Sequence record: NC_047808.1
Length of the DNA: 39,300 nt
Source: Escherichia phage vB_EcoP_F
Strand: one strand, 5' to 3'
Shown: positions 4,980-12,500 of the stretch, piece by piece
Position numbering within the stretch: position 1 is the stretch's first letter
Layout: every line of letters begins with the position of its first letter
The notes under the pieces: model-generated
The model's database searches: none
Told to the model about the DNA's origin: nothing
What the model saw: only the letters and a program-made list of their open reading frames with translations
Program-made: the position numbers and the translations under genes

Positions 4980-6739
4980 GTAAAGACTTAGTGGCGCGTC
5001 AGGCGCTAATGACTGCCCGTATGAAGGCAGACTTCGTGTTCTTCCTGTTCGTCCTGTGGAAAGCTCTGTCACTCCCGGTCCCGACTCGCTGTCAGATTGA
5101 CATGGCGAAGAAACTATCGGCTGGCGACAACAGGCGTTTCATCCTACAGGCGTTCCGTGGTATCGGGAAGTCCTTCATTACGTGTGCATTCGTGGTCTGG
5201 AAACTATGGAACAACCCAGACTTGAAGTTCATGATTGTGTCGGCCTCAAAGGAACGAGCCGATGCGAACTCCATCTTCATCAAGCGAATCATCGACCTCA
5301 TGCCTCAGCTTAAGGAACTCAAACCTAAGCAGGGACAGCGAGATGCGGTTATCAGCTTCGACGTTGGACCAGCCAAGCCGGACCACTCACCTTCGGTTAA
5401 GTCCGTTGGTATCACTGGTCAGTTGACTGGTAGTCGTGCTGACATCCTGATTGCCGATGACGTGGAGGTTCCGAACAACTCAGCGACTCAGGCTGCACGA
5501 GACCGTCTGTCAGAGCTTGTGAAAGAGTTCGATGCTATCCTGAAGCCCGGAGGCACAATCATCTATCTGGGTACTCCTCAGAACGAGATGACCCTGTATC
5601 GTGAGCTGGAAGGTCGTGGGTACACCACTACTATCTGGCCTGCTCGTTATCCACGCGACAGGAAGGACTGGCAGTCTTACGGCGACCGTCTGGCTCCTAT
5701 GCTTCAGGCAGAACTGGAAGAGGACCCTGAGTCCTTCTACTGGCGTCCGACCGACGAGGTACGCTTCGATGATACGGACCTGAAGGAACGTGAGTTGTCA
5801 TATGGCAAGGCTGGCTTCGCTCTACAGTTCATGCTTAACCCGAACCTGAGTGATGCTGAGAAGTACCCTCTGAAGCTCCGTGACCTTATCGTAGCTGACT
5901 TGGACCCAGCGTCTAGCCCAATGGTCTACCAATGGCTTCCTAACCCTCAGAACAAGCGTGAGGACGTTCCTAACGTTGGACTCATGGGGGACTCATACCA
6001 CACGTATCAGACTGTAGGTTCTGCCTTCAGTTCGTACACCCAGAAGATTCTAGTCATTGACCCTAGTGGTCGTGGTAAGGATGAAACTGGTTATGCGGTA
6101 CTGTACCAGCTAAACGGCTACATCTTCGCTATGGAAGTTGGCGGTATGCGGGGCGGCTATGAAGACTCTACGCTGGAAGCCCTGGCTAAGATTGGTCGTA
6201 AGTGGAAGGTCAACGAATACGTAATTGAGGGTAACTTCGGTGATGGTATGTACCTTGAGCTATTCAAGCCTGTAGCTTCCCGTATTCATCCTGCTGCTGT
6301 AACTGAAGTGAAGAGTAAGGGTCAGAAGGAACTCCGCATCTGTGACGTTCTGGAGCCTATCATGGGGTCTCACCGACTTATCATCAACGCTGCTGCTATC
6401 GTCCAAGATTACCAGTCTGCCTCTGATAAGGATGGTGTTCGTAATCCTATCTACTCTCTCTTCTACCAGATGACACGTATCTCTCGTGAACGTGGAGCAT
6501 TGGCACACGATGACCGACTTGATGCGCTGGCTATCGGTGTACAGTTCTTCGTTGAGTCTATGGCGAAGGATGCCAACAAAGGCGAACGTGAAGTCACTGA
6601 GGAGTGGCTGGAAGAACAGATGGAGAACCCACGGAAAGGCTTCGAGTCCATCCACACTGAGTTCTGGGACAATGGGGTCCGGGTAACTCACGATACGGAC
6701 GACGAGCTTGGACTAGGGTCCTACGTTACGTTCCACTAG
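4976..6739 (+). CDS. terminase large subunit gp19
   Basis: 587 aa; strong similarity to recalled T7 gp19 from the first residues ([33 protein letters not shown]); apparent TTG start 4976 overlapping Rz stop, GAAGGAGG RBS upstream. Confidence 0.9.
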
Positions 6740-6781
6740 CTGAATGAATAACTATAGGCGAAAACTGAATTAATAAGCAGT

Positions 6782-6800
6782 TAGTAACCTATGGTTACTA
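6782..6800 (+). promoter_or_regulatory. tight hairpin TAGTAACC-TAT-GGTTACTA (8-bp perfect stem, 3-nt loop)
   Basis: Perfect inverted repeat between terminase stop and phiOR-like promoter; no adjacent U-tract. Confidence 0.25.
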
Positions 6801-6833
6801 CCAGTCTAACCTACTGTTTTACAAGGAGTTTGG

Positions 6834-6856
6834 ACTTAACTATCACTATAGGGAAG
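6834..6856 (+). promoter_or_regulatory. phage RNA polymerase promoter (phiOR position), ACTTAACTATCACTATAGGGAAG
   Basis: Consensus match; located after gene 19 as T7 phiOR. Confidence 0.75.
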
Positions 6857-7035
6857 ACCCCCGGTTACTTATAGTATTACTGTAGTGAATATACATATGC
6901 AGACTTTATGCAAGACCTTAGGAGGCAGACTCCGAGTTCTTACCTAAGGCTTGCACCGATGGAAGGAGGGTGATATTAATCATAATCCCTCCAATACAGA
7001 TAGTAAAGACCATAGATACAGGAGGTATGTAGCAT

Positions 7036-7194
7036 ATGGCAAAGACCAAAGCTGTACTTAAAGCTCTGGCTACCAATCGAGCTACATACAGGTTTCTTGC
7101 TGCTGTTCTACTTGCTGCTGGCGTTACTGCTGGAAGTAAGTGGGTCGGGTGGGTCGAGACTCTCGTATGTTCTCTGGTGTCTCAGTGCAATTAA
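7036..7194 (+). CDS. gp19.5-like small membrane protein
   Basis: 52 aa (MAKTKAVLKALATNRATYRFLAAVLLAAGV..); GGAGG RBS at 7021..7025; resembles recalled T7 gp19.5 (RVTYRFL motif); last gene before genome end. Confidence 0.5.
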   Translation: MAKTKAVLKALATNRATYRFLAAVLLAAGVTAGSKWVGWVETLVCSLVSQCN

Positions 7195-7309
7195 CGCAAT
7201 CATGGTAACGATTCATGAAAGGAGGTAGGTAGGTGTGAACGAAGATGACTACGTGTCGTTCTCAGAAGAGGACTACCAGACAGAGTGGGAATACGCACAT
7301 GGGAGGAAG

Positions 7310-7356
7310 AGCTAAGGTCAGTACGTGGATAAAGACTCACTCTACTGACCTTAGCT
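7310..7356 (+). promoter_or_regulatory. perfect 14-bp stem hairpin AGCTAAGGTCAGTA ... TACTGACCTTAGCT with 19-nt loop
   Basis: Exact inverted repeat 7310..7323 / 7343..7356 in the non-coding right-end region. Confidence 0.35.
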
Positions 7357-7447
7357 ACTGTAGTCAAGGACTTTAGGTAACACCTTAATAGAAGCTCACT
7401 TAGGGTCATCCTACTTATTGGTCCATCCTAGTGTCGCCTGACCTACG

Positions 7448-7490
7448 GTCCTTGACCTACAGTGGCTGTGGCCTACAGTAGTGACGATGA
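7448..7490 (+). repeat. short imperfect direct repeats (GACCTACGG / GACCTACAGTGG / GGCCTACAGTAG), right-end array
   Basis: Three CCTACAG-like units at about 14-bp spacing immediately before predicted terminus; analogous to T7 short-repeat array adjacent to terminal repeat. Confidence 0.3.
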
Positions 7491-7517
7491 GTTTTGGACC
7501 AAAAGTTTGAGACCACA

Positions 7518-7715
7518 TCTCACAGTTCAAGAACCTCAAGTCTCCCCATAGGCCCTCTTTAAGTCCAGACCAAAGGCCCTACCCAGTCTATCATAAGGCT
7601 GGACCGATGGTCGACGATAGGTCTAGGCTATGGCTGGAGGTCAGGACGATAGGTAGGGACTATTGGTCTGTCTCTGAGTCTCTATCTGTATAGTGATATA
7701 GTATAACATTACGTC
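7518..7715 (+). other. predicted physical genome terminus and terminal-repeat region (single collapsed copy); left end predicted at 7518
   Basis: TCTCACAGTTCAAGAACC..CCCCATAGG at 7518 resembles recalled T7/T3 left-terminal sequence (TCTCACAG..); non-coding; flanked by short-repeat arrays; right boundary not determinable. Confidence 0.3.
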
Positions 7716-7815
7716 CTACACCTACAGTCCTACACCTACAGTCCTACAACCTACAGTCCTACAACCTACAGTCACAACCATAAGACACCAACACCTACAG
7801 TCATAGACCTACAGT
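7716..7815 (+). repeat. array of imperfect short tandem repeats (unit approx CCTACA[A]CCTACAGT, 14-15 bp period)
   Basis: cctacacctacagtcctacacctacagtcctacaacctacagtcctacaacctacagtc.. seen directly; position equals T7 left-end short-repeat array. Confidence 0.5.
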
Positions 7816-7926
7816 TAATAGACACACAGCTATAGACTTAAGGTCAAAGACATGTTAGTCAAAGACTATATCCTCTTACACCATGAGGCCGACGATAGCT
7901 CAATCAATATTATTTCGAATTACCTA

Positions 7927-7956
7927 TTGACTATAGGTCTAGACTATGGCTTAATA
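7927..7956 (+). promoter_or_regulatory. candidate host sigma70 early promoter (A1-like): TTGACT-17 bp-CTTAAT
   Basis: -35 TTGACT at 7927..7932; spacer contains CTAGACTATGG resembling T7 A1 spacer; weak -10. Confidence 0.3.
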
Positions 7957-8067
7957 GCTTCCGTCAACACGACACGGCAACAACCGGATAGTGAAGACGC
8001 CTGGTCATCCCGGTTAAGTAGACAGCCTGATAAGTCATACGAACAACAGGCAGATGACAGAAAGTAG

Positions 8068-8105
8068 TTGACAAGATGTAACGATAAGATGTAAGCTGTA
8101 CCACA
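8068..8105 (+). promoter_or_regulatory. candidate host sigma70 early promoter (A2/A3-like): TTGACA-18 bp-TAAGCT followed by GTACCACAT
   Basis: Consensus -35 TTGACA at 8068..8073; architecture and downstream GTACCACAT resemble recalled T7 A2/A3 promoters. Confidence 0.45.
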
Positions 8106-8204
8106 TCGAAACAACGGTGATGACCAACACTGAAATGGTCTACCTGAAGTCCTCTGACTGAAGGGAATGCTCTTTAACAATCTGGATAAACTCTTAATGT
8201 GCGC

Positions 8205-8262
8205 CGACAGTGATTAACTACAGGGTCTTTGAGTCTACATCTGAAGGCCCTGACTGATAGTC
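8205..8262 (+). promoter_or_regulatory. candidate RNase III site/hairpin (AGTGATTAACTACAGG ... CCTGACTGATAGTCACTAAC), copy 1
   Basis: Imperfect inverted repeat; a near-identical copy precedes the ocr gene (8532..8590). Confidence 0.35.
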
Positions 8263-8284
8263 ACTAACTTAACGGATGGACACT

Positions 8285-8530
8285 ATGAAACACTTAAGCA
8301 CAATCACTAATCGCAATGAAGTATTCGTGAACACTAAAGGTTATGCGTGGATTCAGCTTAAAGAGATGACAGGAGCGCGTCACCGTGTGGTAGTGCGCAA
8401 GGTCTCAAGCAAGCCATTCAGCAACTACAGCGTAGATACTGTGCGTATAGACAACGAGACCTACCTGATAGACTCGCAGATAACCGTGAGTCTTACAGCG
8501 GGCGTCTCAGCTCCTTATTTCGCTAACTGA
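8285..8530 (+). CDS. hypothetical early protein (first gene downstream of host promoters)
   Basis: Track ORF 8276..8530; start moved to ATG 8285 with GGATGG RBS; no recognisable homolog. Confidence 0.45.
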   Translation: MKHLSTITNRNEVFVNTKGYAWIQLKEMTGARHRVVVRKVSSKPFSNYSVDTVRIDNETYLIDSQITVSLTAGVSAPYFAN

Positions 8531-8531
8531 G

Positions 8532-8590
8532 AGTGATTAACTACAGGTCGTTAGACTCATAGCGGCCTGACTGATAGTCACTAACATACA
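8532..8590 (+). promoter_or_regulatory. candidate RNase III site/hairpin, copy 2 (R0.3-like), upstream of ocr
   Basis: Repeat of the 8205..8262 element (AGTGATTAACTACAGG..GCCTGACTGATAGTCACTAAC). Confidence 0.35.
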
Positions 8591-8617
8591 CACAAACAAC
8601 TTTGAGAGGATATAACT

Positions 8618-8962
8618 ATGGAACGTAACGCTAACGCATACTATGAGCTGCTGGCTGCAACCGTTGAGCTGTTCAATGAGCGTATTCAGTACGACGAAAT
8701 AACTGAAGGCGATGATTATTATGATGCGCTGCATGAGGTCGTAGACGGTCAGGTTCCGCACTATTACCACGAGATTTTTACGGTGATGGCTGCTGATGGT
8801 ATAGACCACGAGTTCGAAGACTCTGGGCTGATGCCTGAGACCAAGGACGTAATGCGTATACTACAAGCTCGCATCTATGAGGCTCTGTATAACGATGTGT
8901 ATGATAGCTCGGATGTAGTCTGGTTCGAGGCTGAAGAGAGTGACGAGGAGGACTGCGAGTGA
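8618..8962 (+). CDS. ocr: Ocr-like DNA-mimic anti-restriction protein gp0.3
   Basis: 114 aa, acidic; strong match to recalled T7 gp0.3 (VPHYY..IF.VMA..GID.EFEDSGLMP.TKDV.RILQARIYE). Confidence 0.85.
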   Translation: MERNANAYYELLAATVELFNERIQYDEITEGDDYYDALHEVVDGQVPHYYHEIFTVMAADGIDHEFEDSGLMPETKDVMRILQARIYEALYNDVYDSSDVVWFEAEESDEEDCE

Positions 8963-9111
8963 TGGTAACTTATGGTCTCTGCCAGCACCACGTCACCAAC
9001 GCCCGGCTTATGGTCAAGACCGGGCAGTTAAACCACGATGCGACTATGCGCCACCTGAAAGCGGTCTACGAGGGCCGCAAGCGTATACACGACAGCTTAC
9101 ACACTGAGTGA
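8962..9111 (+). CDS. hypothetical early protein, 49 aa
   Basis: ATGA overlap with ocr stop, GAGGAGGA upstream; own translation MVTYGLCQHHVTNARLMVKTGQLNHDATMRHLKAVYEGRKRIHDSLHTE. Confidence 0.4.
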   Translation: MVTYGLCQHHVTNARLMVKTGQLNHDATMRHLKAVYEGRKRIHDSLHTE

Positions 9112-9177
9112 TAGACGAGAGGTCATCGACTGATAGGTGGCCTCAAAGATTACCACTTACATTGATAGGAGTTAACT

Positions 9178-9267
9178 ATGAACATCGGTTACTGGGTATG
9201 CCTGTCTCCAGTTATCTGGATGATAGGCTATGGGTTATACGACTGTATTAAACGGAAATCACTATGA
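9178..9267 (+). CDS. hypothetical small hydrophobic peptide, 29 aa
   Basis: GGAG RBS at 9166..9169; MNIGYWVCLSPVIWMIGYGLYDCIKRKSL; stop overlaps next start (ATGA). Confidence 0.35.
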   Translation: MNIGYWVCLSPVIWMIGYGLYDCIKRKSL

Positions 9268-9461
9268 GTAGCGCAATATTGATAGCCATAGGCTATGGAC
9301 TTATCGCCTACGTGCTGGTGAGAGACATCGACAAAGCGCGTAAAGTCTACAAATTCAACTATGTACGTCTGGGCCGCTGGACTGTACGTCAACCTAACGG
9401 ACGATTCATGCGCAACTTAGCGAACGTCTGGGATATAGCAACTATTGGGAGCAAACTGTAA
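9264..9461 (+). CDS. hypothetical early membrane protein, 65 aa
   Basis: Track ORF; N-terminal TM helix (AILIAIGYGLIAYVLV); translationally coupled. Confidence 0.45.
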   Translation: MSSAILIAIGYGLIAYVLVRDIDKARKVYKFNYVRLGRWTVRQPNGRFMRNLANVWDIATIGSKL

Positions 9462-9721
9462 TGAAAACCGTATACATTAACAAACCATCTATCCGTAGCC
9501 GTGTAGAGCAAATACAGCGTGACGTGTTCTTACATCGCCGCATGGAGGCTGAGGGCCATAAGTCCGAACTGATGTGTCTGGCGTATGGTGGACGACCGAT
9601 CACTGAAGATGGTAAACTTTTAGTCTCAGGCTGGAAGGCGATAGACCAACGGTCAACCATCAAGCACACGACTAATGGTGACTTCAGCCATCTCCACGCT
9701 AACCCACTGATATGCAAGTGA
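9461..9721 (+). CDS. hypothetical early protein, 86 aa
   Basis: Track ORF; GGGAG RBS; ATGA overlap with upstream ORF. Confidence 0.5.
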   Translation: MKTVYINKPSIRSRVEQIQRDVFLHRRMEAEGHKSELMCLAYGGRPITEDGKLLVSGWKAIDQRSTIKHTTNGDFSHLHANPLICK

Positions 9722-9726
9722 TTATG

Positions 9727-9749
9727 ACTTAACTATCACTATAGGACTC
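9727..9749 (+). promoter_or_regulatory. phage RNA polymerase promoter immediately upstream of the RNA polymerase gene, ACTTAACTATCACTATAGGACTC
   Basis: Full consensus match; +1 G at 9744, 75 nt upstream of gene 1 ATG. Confidence 0.7.
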
Positions 9750-9815
9750 AAGGTCTAAGACTACAAGTGAAAGACCAAAGAGACTTTAAGTGAAAGACTA
9801 ATAACAAGGACTTTA
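9745..9815 (+). promoter_or_regulatory. candidate RNase III processing region (R1 position) with repeated AAGTGAAAGAC / GACTTTAAGT units
   Basis: GACTCAAGGTC motif plus internal direct repeats in leader of gene 1. Confidence 0.3.
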
Positions 9816-9818
9816 AGT

Positions 9819-12500
9819 ATGAGCGTCATCTCTATTGACAAACACGACTTCTCTGATGTGTCGAACGCCATTGAGCCGTTTAACCTGCTGGCCGACCACT
9901 ACGGGCAAGACCTTGCAGTCAAACAGCTTCAGCTTGAGCATGAGGCATACACTGAAGGCGAGCGACGTTTCATCAAAAACCTTGAGCGACAGACTGAGCG
10001 CGGGGAACTGGCAGACAATCAGGTCGCCAAGCCTTTGATGCAGACTCTGGTCCCTAAGATTGCGCAAGCCGTCAGGGAGTGGCATGAAGGTCCAGACGGG
10101 AAGCTGTCAACCTCTCGTCCTAGCGTAGCGTTCACCATGTTAAGCACTGAAGAGAAGGCCGTCAAGGACCGCTCTCTGCGTATCTCTTGCGAGTCTGCTG
10201 CGGTCATCATACTGAAGGTCATACTCTCCAAGCTGGTCAAGCCTGAAGGGATACCGATTACACCGATGGCCTCCGCGATAGGCCGCACACTTGAGGACGA
10301 AATCCGCTTCGGTCGCATCCGTGACAAAGAGAAAGAGCACTTCAAGAAGGCGATAGCTGATAACCTGAATAAGCGGGCCGGGGCGTCCTACAAGAAAGCC
10401 TACATGCAAGCGGTCGAGGCGTCCATGCTGGAGCAAGGCCAACTGGAAGATGCGTGGGGGACTTGGAGTCCTACAGAGGCTGTCCACGTTGGCATCAAGA
10501 TGCTTGAGATTGTCATCCAGTCAACACAACTGGTCGAGCTTAAGCGGTACGGTGCTGGCAATGCAGCGGCTGACGTAGAGATGGTCCACCTGTCGGACTT
10601 CTGGGTCAAGAAGATGGCACAACGAGGATTCAGCCTTGCGGGTATCGCTCCAGTCTACCAGCCTTGCGTCGTTCCACCTAAGCCGTGGACTGGTGTCGTA
10701 GGTGGTGGGTACTGGGCCAAAGGTCGCAGACCGTTACCATTGATTCGCTTAGGGTCTAAGTCTGCGGTAGCACGTTATGAAGACGTGTACATGCCTGAAG
10801 TCTATGACGCTGTGAACATCATCCAAAATACACCTTGGAAAGTGAACAAGGAGGTATTGGACGTGGTGAACATGGTCGAGAAGCTGAACAACACGCCTAT
10901 TGATGACATCCCTCAGATGGAACCGCTGAAGCCTGAGGACTATGCTGGTGAGACCGAGGAGGAACTCAAGGCATGGAAGAAGGCTGCTGCTGGTATCTAT
11001 CGCCGCGAGAAGGCCAGACAGTCACGCAGATTATCACTGAGCTTTATCGTTAACCAAGCAAACAAGTTCTCTCAGTTCAAGGCCATCTGGTTCCCGTACA
11101 ACATGGATTGGCGAGGTCGTGTCTACGCTGTCCCGATGTTCAACCCTCAGGGTAACGACATGCAGAAGGGTCTCCTGACTCTGGCAGTCGGCAAGCCTAT
11201 TGGTGCTGACGGTTTCAAATGGCTGAAGGTCCACGGTGCAAACTGTGCGGGTGTCGATAAAGTCACCTTCGAGGAGCGCATCAAGTGGGTGGAAGACAAC
11301 CACGAAAACATCATGGCTGCTGCTAAGGCACCGATGGATAGTATTGAGTGGTGGGGCAAGTTAGACTCTCCGTTCTGTTTCCTCGCGTTCTGCTTCGAGT
11401 ATGCTGGCGTAATGCACCACGGCCTGTCTTACTCCTGCTCGCTGCCGATAGCGTTCGATGGGTCCTGCTCTGGTATTCAGCACTTCAGTGCGATGCTTCG
11501 TGACCACATCGGTGGACATGCAGTAAACCTGACGCCATCCGGTAAGGTACAAGACATCTACCGCATTGTGTCTGACCGCATTGAGGAGGAGCTTAAAGTC
11601 CTGCTGATTAACGGTACTGACAACGAGATGGTCACTCACGAGGATAAGAAAACTGGTGAGATTACCGAACGTATCAAGCTGGGGACACGAGAGCTGGCCC
11701 GTCAGTGGCTGACATACGGTATGTCACGCAAGGTCACTAAGCGTTCAGTCATGACTCTGGCATACGGGTCGAAAGAGTACGGCTTCGCAGACCAAGTTTA
11801 CGAGGACATCGTGATGCCAGCGATTGACTCAGGGTCTGGCGCTATGTTCACCGAGCCGAGCCAAGCGTCTCGCTTCATGGCTAAGATGATTTGGGAAGCT
11901 GTGAGCGTGACCGTAGTTGCTGCGGTTGACGCGATGAAGTGGCTTCAGGGTGCTGCCAAGCTGCTGGCTGCTGAAGTGAAGGACAAGAAGACTGGAGAAA
12001 TCCTGAAGCCTTGCCTTCCGGTACACTGGGTAACACCTGATGGTTTCCCGGTCTGGCAGGAATACCGCAAGAAGGATACCACTCGTCTGAATCTGATGTT
12101 CTTAGGGTCATTCAACCTTCAACCTACGGTCAACAAAGGCATGAAGAAAGAGCTGGACAAGCACAAGCAGGAGTCAGGCATTAGCCCGAACTTCGTCCAC
12201 TCACAAGATGGTAGCCACCTACGCAAGACTGTAGTCCACACGCATCGCAAGTATGGCGTGATGTCATTCGCAGTGATTCATGATAGCTTCGGGACCATCC
12301 CGGCTGACGCTGAATATCTGTTCCGTGGTGTCCGTGAGACGATGGTCGAGACCTACCGCGACAACGATGTGCTGCTTGACTTCTACGAGCAGTTTGAATA
12401 CCAGCTTCACGAGAGCCAGCGCGATAAGTTGCCTGAGCTTCCGAAGAAAGGTAAACTGAATATCGAAGACATCTTGTCTTCAGACTTTGCATTCGCTTAA
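9819..12500 (+). CDS. single-subunit DNA-directed RNA polymerase gp1
   Basis: 893 aa vs T7 RNAP 883 aa; conserved motifs e.g. HDSFGT, YGVMSFAVIHDSFGTIP, C-terminal FAFA. Confidence 0.95.
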   Translation: MSVISIDKHDFSDVSNAIEPFNLLADHYGQDLAVKQLQLEHEAYTEGERRFIKNLERQTERGELADNQVAKPLMQTLVPKIAQAVREWHEGPDGKLSTSRPSVAFTMLSTEEKAVKDRSLRISCESAAVIILKVILSKLVKPEGIPITPMASAIGRTLEDEIRFGRIRDKEKEHFKKAIADNLNKRAGASYKKAYMQAVEASMLEQGQLEDAWGTWSPTEAVHVGIKMLEIVIQSTQLVELKRYGAGNAAADVEMVHLSDFWVKKMAQRGFSLAGIAPVYQPCVVPPKPWTGVVGGGYWAKGRRPLPLIRLGSKSAVARYEDVYMPEVYDAVNIIQNTPWKVNKEVLDVVNMVEKLNNTPIDDIPQMEPLKPEDYAGETEEELKAWKKAAAGIYRREKARQSRRLSLSFIVNQANKFSQFKAIWFPYNMDWRGRVYAVPMFNPQGNDMQKGLLTLAVGKPIGADGFKWLKVHGANCAGVDKVTFEERIKWVEDNHENIMAAAKAPMDSIEWWGKLDSPFCFLAFCFEYAGVMHHGLSYSCSLPIAFDGSCSGIQHFSAMLRDHIGGHAVNLTPSGKVQDIYRIVSDRIEEELKVLLINGTDNEMVTHEDKKTGEITERIKLGTRELARQWLTYGMSRKVTKRSVMTLAYGSKEYGFADQVYEDIVMPAIDSGSGAMFTEPSQASRFMAKMIWEAVSVTVVAAVDAMKWLQGAAKLLAAEVKDKKTGEILKPCLPVHWVTPDGFPVWQEYRKKDTTRLNLMFLGSFNLQPTVNKGMKKELDKHKQESGISPNFVHSQDGSHLRKTVVHTHRKYGVMSFAVIHDSFGTIPADAEYLFRGVRETMVETYRDNDVLLDFYEQFEYQLHESQRDKLPELPKKGKLNIEDILSSDFAFA

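Follow-up and report, generated by a model that had tools for sequence, protein, structure and literature searches.

Which genes does a K1F-like phage carry in its early region around the anti-restriction gene ocr, and can any of them be tied to a known function? We addressed this question for Escherichia phage vB_EcoP_F (record NC_047808.1), whose complete sequence of 39,300 nucleotides was analysed and is referred to below as the window. Between positions 8285 and 9721 ocr is flanked by five small open reading frames (ORFs). Ocr itself is a DNA mimic that blocks type I restriction. An earlier reading based on the sequence letters and the translated ORFs (the original prediction) had regarded Ocr as the only recognisable protein and the five small ORFs as novelties in place of T7 genes 0.4–0.7. 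We found that all six ORFs are real genes and that one of the five small ORFs belongs to the T7 gp0.4 family, one belongs to the T3 gene 0.6 family and three are orphans. The interval is the coding part of an ordinary, already annotated class I (early) operon of the genus Kayfunavirus, built on the T7/T3 plan. Our reading as a whole, to which we assign a probability of roughly 75%, is that of a K1F-like early operon with three RNase III-type units, a gp0.4 homologue that would inhibit FtsZ and four accessory genes. The six genes are (lengths in amino acids, aa):

8285..8530, + strand: gp0.2-family gene, 81 aa, basic product with an all-beta model, carried on a cassette of 323 bp with hairpin copies 1 and 2 at its borders

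8618..8962, + strand: ocr, DNA-mimic anti-restriction protein of 114 aa (Pfam PF08684, 1.5e-32; phrog_2568; 53% identity to T7 gp0.3)

8962..9111, + strand: T7 gp0.4-family protein of 49 aa, corresponding to K1F gp0.35; predicted to inhibit FtsZ polymerisation as a helical hairpin (PF26807 on homologues, hhalign, PHROG and TGATG overlap)

9178..9267, + strand: gene of a 29-aa hydrophobic peptide with the basic C-terminal tail IKRKSL, left unannotated in phage FFK3 (selection, full-length conservation in related loci, 92 phage records and ribosome-binding site, see below)

9264..9461, + strand: T3 gene 0.6-family protein of 65 aa, corresponding to K1F gp0.37, with an N-terminal transmembrane helix and a basic tail containing NGRF (phrog_2385, 3e-31)

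9461..9721, + strand: gp0.38-family protein of 86 aa, with a three-helix core and the highly conserved C-terminal motif HTTxGDFSHLHANPLICK (predicted structure, family conservation)

Ocr and all five small ORFs lie where the original prediction had placed them. Over the 2.4 kb surrounding them the window is 98.1% identical, at the same coordinates, to Escherichia phage vB_EcoP_FFK3 (ON548433, genus Kayfunavirus), and identity to K1F and more than 50 further K1F-like phages amounts to 88–95%. For K1F and many of the Kayfunavirus records it reaches 92–95%. The K1F record AM084414 names the corresponding ORFs gp0.2, gp0.3 (ocr), gp0.35, gp0.37 and gp0.38. Their order is the same in the window, and the window ORFs are 97.5%, 77.6%, 96.9% and 95.3% identical to gp0.2, gp0.35, gp0.37 and gp0.38, respectively. 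The two phages differ in that gp0.36, a 55-aa transmembrane protein of K1F, is absent from the window, where the gene of the 29-aa peptide occupies its slot. The K1F counterparts gp0.2, gp0.35, gp0.37 and gp0.38 are annotated in GenBank and all products except the 29-aa peptide fall into existing PHROGs, so none of these ORFs is newly seen.

By sequence comparison, the product of the first ORF after ocr is a diverged member of the T7 gp0.4 family of FtsZ inhibitors, which overturns the view that only Ocr can be recognised. Precomputed assignments place PF26807 (Phage_T7_GP04) on 88 of 88 homologues that are 61–98% identical to the window protein. Our own Pfam scans were empty for this ORF because the Pfam set scanned with the window proteins did not include PF26807. 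When 33 members of the window-protein family were aligned by hhalign with 15 T7-type gp0.4 proteins, the two profiles matched with a probability of 94.5% (E 7.7e-8, 46 columns). PHROG assignments are reciprocal: the window protein matches phrog_5058 (2.9e-28) and also phrog_7202 (2.4e-5), T7 gp0.4 matches phrog_7202 (4.6e-33) and also phrog_5058 (9e-5), and phrog_25044 is matched by both. The pairwise similarity to T7 gp0.4 is detectable as well, with 39% identity over 41 of 49 residues in BLASTP and a Smith-Waterman score of 50, while none of 20,000 shuffled sequences scored as high (maximum 46). The gap between the two families is bridged by gp03 of Pectobacterium phage PP47 (Pektosvirus), which matches both profiles (95.7% and 97.4%), reaches E 1e-11 against T7 gp0.4 and is annotated as 'putative cell division FtsZ inhibitor'. 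T3 gp0.65 was also considered as a gp0.4 relative and rejected at a probability of 0.2% or lower.

Likeness to T7 gp0.4 extends to the position of the gene and to the layout of the protein. Both proteins have about 50 aa and are homologous over nearly their whole length by profile comparison, and both are encoded by the first gene after ocr with an overlap of one nucleotide between stop and start (in T7, gene 0.3 ends and gene 0.4 starts at 1278). The YGL start, a central glycine at the turn and the LK..YE helix are conserved. G21 of the window protein aligns with G25 of T7, which is consistent with a hairpin turn. The window protein differs in that its turn is longer by one residue, its C-terminus is basic instead of acidic and a histidine replaces W28.

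The significance of the last exchange follows from recent work on T7. Gp0.4 was described as a two-helix hairpin that binds monomeric FtsZ with 382 nM and sits on the synergy-loop surface, thereby occluding the next subunit (Zhang et al. 2026, PMC13423816). Toxicity was abolished by each of the exchanges V15A, V22A, W28A, M32A, L35A and Y39A and by the escape alleles W28L and L35P, the latter two of which also lost interaction with FtsZ in a yeast two-hybrid assay. In the same study the CapRel(Ebc) defence was found to be triggered by T7 Gp0.4, and Gp0.4 homologues, 88% identical, were reported only from Bas64 and Bas65, two very close T7 relatives.

In the hhalign alignment five of the six FtsZ-contact residues of T7 Gp0.4 are identical in the window protein: V15, V22, M32, L35 and Y39 correspond to V11, V18, M29, L32 and Y36, with L32 and Y36 invariant across the family. 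W28 is replaced by H25, a histidine that is nearly invariant in the family. The residues of T7 Gp0.4 that contribute to CapRel(Ebc) sensing only are mostly changed (A12Q, T14H, L16T, S19R and R23K), with K36 kept. Since the contact residues are mostly identical and the CapRel residues mostly changed, the protein would be expected still to inhibit FtsZ, and triggering of CapRel(Ebc) appears unlikely. As a working model, homology suggests for the 49-aa protein a hairpin of two helices that would attach to monomeric FtsZ on its synergy-loop face, so that Z-ring assembly would stop and infected cells would filament.

Such a protein would account for a published observation on K1F. K1F is a candidate therapy phage against E. 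coli K1 causing neonatal meningitis. Infection with K1F was shown to produce filamentous cells with mislocalised, multi-ring FtsZ, as infection with T7 does (Dhanoa et al. 2022, PMC9372555). The authors stated that K1F "lacks the 0.4 genes" and that BLAST had given no similarity to kil or gp0.4, and called the FtsZ inhibitor "currently unknown" and "likely to be novel". K1F gp0.35 and its window homologue are the obvious candidates. Our literature search returned no paper linking Kayfunavirus to gp0.4 or to FtsZ inhibition. Pfam curators have already brought these proteins together in one family, a grouping that experimental papers have not taken up. While FtsZ inhibition by T7 Gp0.4 is experimentally mapped, that by the Kayfunavirus homologues is putative. 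The gp0.4 homologue thus offers a testable answer to the puzzle of a phage that blocks FtsZ though it was said to lack gene 0.4. In addition, a diverged set of gp0.4 proteins with contact residues kept and the CapRel-sensing face changed provides natural variants separating FtsZ inhibition from immune sensing.

Several points weigh against this interpretation. H25 stands at the very site where W28L or W28A inactivates T7 Gp0.4, so that conservation of the contact surface is incomplete; no more than 39% of 41 aligned residues are shared with T7 gp0.4; and expression, RNase III cleavage and FtsZ binding are predictions. The homologue could accordingly have kept the fold and changed its target or lost FtsZ inhibition, in which case the block seen with K1F would be due to a different early gene, such as gp0.38 or one encoding a membrane peptide. 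Besides the exchange at W28, the extra residue in the inter-helix turn would fit such a change, as would the difference of five out of six residues on the CapRel-sensing face, which indicates that surfaces of this protein evolve fast. We nevertheless consider a change of function unlikely: the other five contact residues are identical and two of them invariant, the bridging PP47 protein also carries histidine at the W28 site and still matches T7 gp0.4, gene position and coupling to ocr are kept, and K1F does show a gp0.4-type phenotype.

Whether the small ORFs are genes at all was judged from their starts, their distribution and the selection acting on them. The ATG at 8285 is preceded by GGATGGA and that at 9178 by the strong ribosome-binding site TAGGAG. 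The remaining three starts overlap the preceding stop, at 8962 by one nucleotide shared with the ocr stop (TGATG), at 9264 by an ATGA overlap of 4 nt with the stop of the 29-aa ORF and at 9461 by TAATG with the stop of the 9264 ORF. Translational coupling, proposed earlier for several of the ORFs, was hence borne out for three of the five. Matching phage records in tblastn numbered 117 for gp0.2, 92 for the 29-aa ORF, 221 for gp0.37 and 222 for gp0.38, and the gp0.35 family comprises 88 clusters in a large protein collection. Lack of conservation, named at the outset as a sign of non-coding sequence, was not what we found: the ORFs are kept in many phage records and, as described in the following, are under purifying selection.

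Ratios of nonsynonymous to synonymous divergence (dN/dS) were determined in comparisons with 10–16 related loci (IMG/VR loci and K1F). Values ranged from 0.04 to 0.8 for the 8962 ORF, from 0.06 to 0.30 for the 29-aa ORF, from 0.24 to 0.92 for the 9264 ORF and from 0.20 to 0.44 for the 9461 ORF. For gp0.2, compared across homologues of four phage lineages, the proportion of synonymous differences (pS) was saturated at 0.73–0.86, and that of nonsynonymous differences (pN) was 0.19–0.33. These values indicate purifying selection on all five ORFs. The test discriminates, because the neighbouring ORF 7852–8067 gave a dN/dS of about 1 or higher in most of the same comparisons. This ORF is annotated in FFK3 as 'alpha,alpha-trehalase' (K1F gp0.1). 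Its dN/dS lies at about 1–1.7 in most comparisons, it contains the phage-promoter-like sequence GACTATAGG at 7929, and its 3' end lies at the -35 hexamer of an A3-type host promoter. The stretch probably represents promoter DNA without a coding function, and the annotated product is certainly a misnomer.

The case for a chance reading frame in non-coding spacer is strongest for the 29-aa ORF, which is omitted from the FFK3 annotation, has no PHROG match and is replaced by another gene, gp0.36, in K1F. Against this, the ORF keeps its ATG, its stop and its full length in 10 of 15 loci, its pS of 0.28–0.79 contrasts with a pN of 0.04–0.22, and its 92 records, strong ribosome-binding site and ATGA overlap with the next gene are features of a gene. 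Together with the contrast provided by ORF 7852–8067, these data make it very improbable that this or any other of the small ORFs is a chance frame. We regard all five as genuine early-operon genes, positioned between the host promoters and gene 1, as had been proposed. Among 16 related loci gp0.38 was present in all, gp0.37 in 15 and the gp0.4 homologue in 14, while ocr, gp0.2, gp0.36, the 29-aa gene and several further small ORFs are variably present. The value of the analysis extends to the remaining small genes, including the unannotated 29-aa one, which prove real, conserved and modular. The presence of ocr varies, and so does its product: 114 aa in the window (8618–8962), it measures 169 aa in K1F (L002, 1114–1623), with an insertion of about 55 residues ahead of a C-terminal DCE, and 110, 114 or 169 aa among the relatives, in some of which the ocr slot is taken by an ORF of 174 or 150 aa.

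Two of the small proteins had been expected to contain transmembrane helices, and both are hydrophobic. The gp0.37 protein (9264–9461) has a clear helix over residues 3–19 with a Kyte-Doolittle maximum of 2.29 in a 17-residue window and an isoelectric point of 10.7; in the 29-aa peptide residues 3–21 are hydrophobic (maximum 1.31 in the same window) and are followed by the basic tail. Both are predicted to be small inner-membrane proteins, their basic tails probably cytoplasmic. The 29-aa ORF is annotated in some records, for instance as 'putative transmembrane domain containing protein', and is distinct from K1F gp0.36, the other membrane protein found in this slot. It resembles T7 gp0.5 in being small and hydrophobic with a basic C-terminus, encoded first after the R0.5 site and joined by a 4-nt ATGA overlap to the next gene. 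With 29 instead of 47 aa and no detectable similarity (hhalign 0.1%), it is comparable in position and composition only. The 29-aa ORF and gp0.37 were rejected as paralogues, as a first hhalign probability of 91% proved to be an artefact of the phage ZG49 sequence and dropped to 2.4% when ZG49 was left out. In ZG49 (L012, 2600–2743) the two genes are joined by a deletion, so that the 29-aa ORF continues in frame into the final 20 codons of gp0.37 and encodes a 47-aa hybrid.

Profile and PHROG matches place gp0.37 in the T3 gene 0.6 family, which is widespread, and not with T7 gp0.6; it is the second small ORF that can be recognised. The T3-type gp0.6 homologue of phage P694, which is 69% identical to T3 gene 0.6, falls into the same phrog_2385 (1.7e-27) and matched 589 phage records in tblastn, including T3 'gene 0.6 protein' and phiSG-JL2 gp0.6A; phmmer links the gp0.37 and T3 gene 0.6 branches. 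This membership explains why gp0.37 is called "0.6" in some records of the K1F group. Common to both are the length of 65 aa, the N-terminal transmembrane helix followed by RD..K..K, a basic tail with R.(P/R)NGRF and a place in the second unit of the early mRNA, behind the R0.5-type hairpin. The T3-type branch is roughly 35–45% identical (single comparisons gave 36.7% and 46–48%), and the neighbours differ: in the window the 29-aa gene precedes, and gp0.38 follows in place of gp0.65 and the gp0.7 kinase.

For gp0.38 the predicted structure suggests a soluble helical protein whose invariant and probably disordered C-terminal motif would most likely dock on a host protein. Searching its profile with HMMER against 1.84 billion representatives yielded 14 matches, all to small phage proteins except two to proteins of about 1,600 aa, which are long, extend over multiple stretches and are probably spurious. 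Nothing below E 0.6 was obtained for gp0.2 and gp0.38 in a PDB sequence search, and scans of the window ORFs against NCBIfam and the above Pfam set, which lacks PF26807, gave no match beyond Ocr. No relative of known function was detectable for gp0.2, the 29-aa peptide or gp0.38 in profile and database searches. A literature search on K1F gp0.38, on gp0.2 with Ocr and on Kayfunavirus early genes returned no functional work on these genes.

T7 gp0.6 is an MreB inhibitor, and T7 gp0.7 is a Ser/Thr kinase that also acts in host shut-off. No homologue of T7 gp0.5, gp0.6 or gp0.7 was found by tblastn anywhere in the window (all E > 0.1; E > 0.3 for gp0.6 and E > 0.5 for gp0.7). The four candidates gp0.2, the 29-aa peptide, gp0.37 and gp0.38 were rejected as homologues of T7 gp0.5, 0.6A/B and 0.7, with hhalign probabilities of at most 0.9% on family alignments; against 0.6A/0.6B they reached at most 0.6% and against gp0.7 at most 0.9%, the latter also without a Pfam kinase match. 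Thus the statement that no ORF resembles the T7 gp0.7 kinase holds. The broader claim of ORFs lying in place of T7 genes 0.4–0.7 falls for gp0.4, whose homologue has the same position and overlap.

Citrobacter phage CR8 helps to interpret this arrangement. In CR8 (L041, 1875–3331) a kinase-only gp0.7 is followed by a transmembrane peptide, a gp0.37 homologue with 80% identity and gp0.38. Its gp0.7 has 242 aa and aligns only to residues 55–222 of T7 gp0.7, the kinase part, without the C-terminal shut-off domain. Since CR8 carries both the kinase and the module of transmembrane peptide, gp0.37 and gp0.38, the module is not simply a replacement of the kinase, and gp0.38 is not a positional substitute for it. 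As CR8, which also carries gp0.38, has a kinase-only gp0.7, gp0.38 might supply the host shut-off that these phages lack in the absence of the gp0.7 C-terminal domain.

We can now weigh the idea that all five ORFs are unrecognisable novelties replacing T7 genes 0.4–0.7, each equally likely to be a new inhibitor. It gains some credit from the four ORFs without a relative of known function and from the absence of T7 gp0.5, gp0.6 and gp0.7. Membership of the 8962 ORF in the gp0.4 family and of the 9264 ORF in the T3 gene 0.6 family, the existing annotation of all ORFs in K1F and relatives and the coexistence of the 0.37–0.38 module with a kinase in CR8 speak against it, and we judge it improbable in this form. 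Its more limited part, that the early genes are likely sites of new inhibitors, is reasonable for the four genes other than the gp0.4 homologue. One or more of these could encode a new inhibitor that acts on a new target in host takeover or anti-defence, a tentative suggestion that we hold to be possible but somewhat doubtful; gp0.2 and gp0.38 would be the best candidates. In the case of gp0.2, it is the first gene to enter and to be expressed, and it resides in a self-contained, hairpin-flanked cassette spread across phage types.

The operon plan becomes apparent when the non-coding elements around these genes and the downstream border are included:

8068..8110, + strand: A3-type host (sigma-70) promoter of the early operon, predicted, with the -35 hexamer TTGACA at 8068–8073 (aligned base for base to the A3 promoters annotated in T7 and T3, with the leader GCTCTTTAACAATCTGGATAA also conserved)

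8209..8266, + strand: RNase III-type hairpin, copy 1, upstream of gp0.2 (fold -23.1 kcal/mol, z-score -3.65)

8532..8583, + strand: RNase III-type hairpin, copy 2, equivalent to R0.3, upstream of ocr (fold -22.9 kcal/mol, z-score -4.85, 0 of 200 shuffles as good)

9105..9160, + strand: RNase III-type hairpin, equivalent to R0.5, overlapping the stop codon of the gp0.4-like gene (fold -19.6 kcal/mol, z-score -4.04)

9729..9745, + strand: phage-RNA-polymerase promoter TTAACTATCACTATAGG between gp0.38 and gene 1 (consensus common to eight other CACTATAGG sites in the window)

9819..12500, + strand: gene 1, single-subunit RNA polymerase, downstream border of the early region (ORF of 893 aa; annotated as DNA-dependent RNA polymerase in FFK3 and K1F)

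A simple scan of sigma-70 promoters and terminators showed no enrichment over shuffled sequence, and the A3-type promoter was located instead by aligning window positions 8066–8200 to promoter A3 and its leader in T7 and T3. From this alignment we expect it to function as a promoter. Host RNA polymerase would transcribe the early operon from upstream A-type promoters, the last of which would be the A3 homologue with its -35 hexamer at 8068.

The three hairpins share with R0.3, R0.5 and R1 of T7 and T3 a two-stem structure of lower stem, asymmetric internal loop and upper stem with the core ACAGGUC...GGCCUGA. A joint alignment of the window hairpins with R0.3, R0.5 and R1 of T3 comprised 18 consensus pairs, 10 of them with compensatory double changes. 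Positions before ocr and after the ocr–0.4 unit are also shared, and the hairpin at 9105..9160 aligns with T3 R0.5, which likewise begins at the stop of the preceding gene, T3 gene 0.3. Different from T7 and T3 are the extra copy before gp0.2 and the fact that copies bound gene cassettes. Predicted cleavage at the hairpins would cut the transcript into units of gp0.2, of ocr with the gp0.4-like gene, and of the 29-aa gene with gp0.37 and gp0.38, mirroring the 0.3–0.4 and 0.5–0.6–0.7 units of T7.

For the phage promoter 19 matches were counted, compared with 8.1 expected. T7 and T3 annotations have no phage promoter before gene 1, whereas CR8 has a predicted one at the same place. Lying just upstream of the polymerase gene, the promoter at 9729–9745 would allow self-amplifying transcription.

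Hairpin copies 1 and 2 are direct repeats of 80–96%, lie 323 nt apart and bracket gp0.2. Relatives without gp0.2 have exactly one hairpin, with breakpoints falling precisely at the hairpin end, and one relative has three hairpins around two cassettes. Because hairpin repeats flank gp0.2 and a single hairpin is found where gp0.2 is absent, we regard gp0.2 as a gain/loss cassette. Cassettes bounded by near-identical RNase III-type hairpin copies are seen at window positions 8206–8588 and in a related locus (L018, 850–1578). The hairpins may serve as recombination points for the shuffling of early genes.

Beyond the K1F-like phages the gp0.2 family was found in Przondovirus, in Ermolevavirus PGT2, in the N4-like Gamaleyavirus EC1-UPM and in a 154-kb Phapecoctavirus. 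The EC1-UPM homologue (L042, 2526–2759) lies between early RNA polymerase genes. In these unrelated virulent phages (L042, L043, L044 and L045) the homologues are situated among small early genes. Such a distribution points to horizontal spread, and gp0.2 would be a mobile cassette, flanked by duplicated hairpins and shared with N4-like, phiKT-like and large myovirus genomes.

Some features of the record itself were also noted. Compared with FFK3 over 5,421 bases (window 5900–11320 against ON548433), the window shows 102 substitutions and no insertion or deletion. The substitutions include two replacements of whole codons (6707–6709 and 9270–9272) and a two-base change at 9169–9170 within the ribosome-binding site of the 29-aa ORF, a pattern that is unusual as natural variation at 98% identity. 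The window shows the phage genome in circularly permuted form. Upstream of the early promoters, positions 7701–7815 hold an array of 14-nt repeats containing CCTACAGT, which lies near the mapped left end of the K1F genome (about position 7518 of the window).

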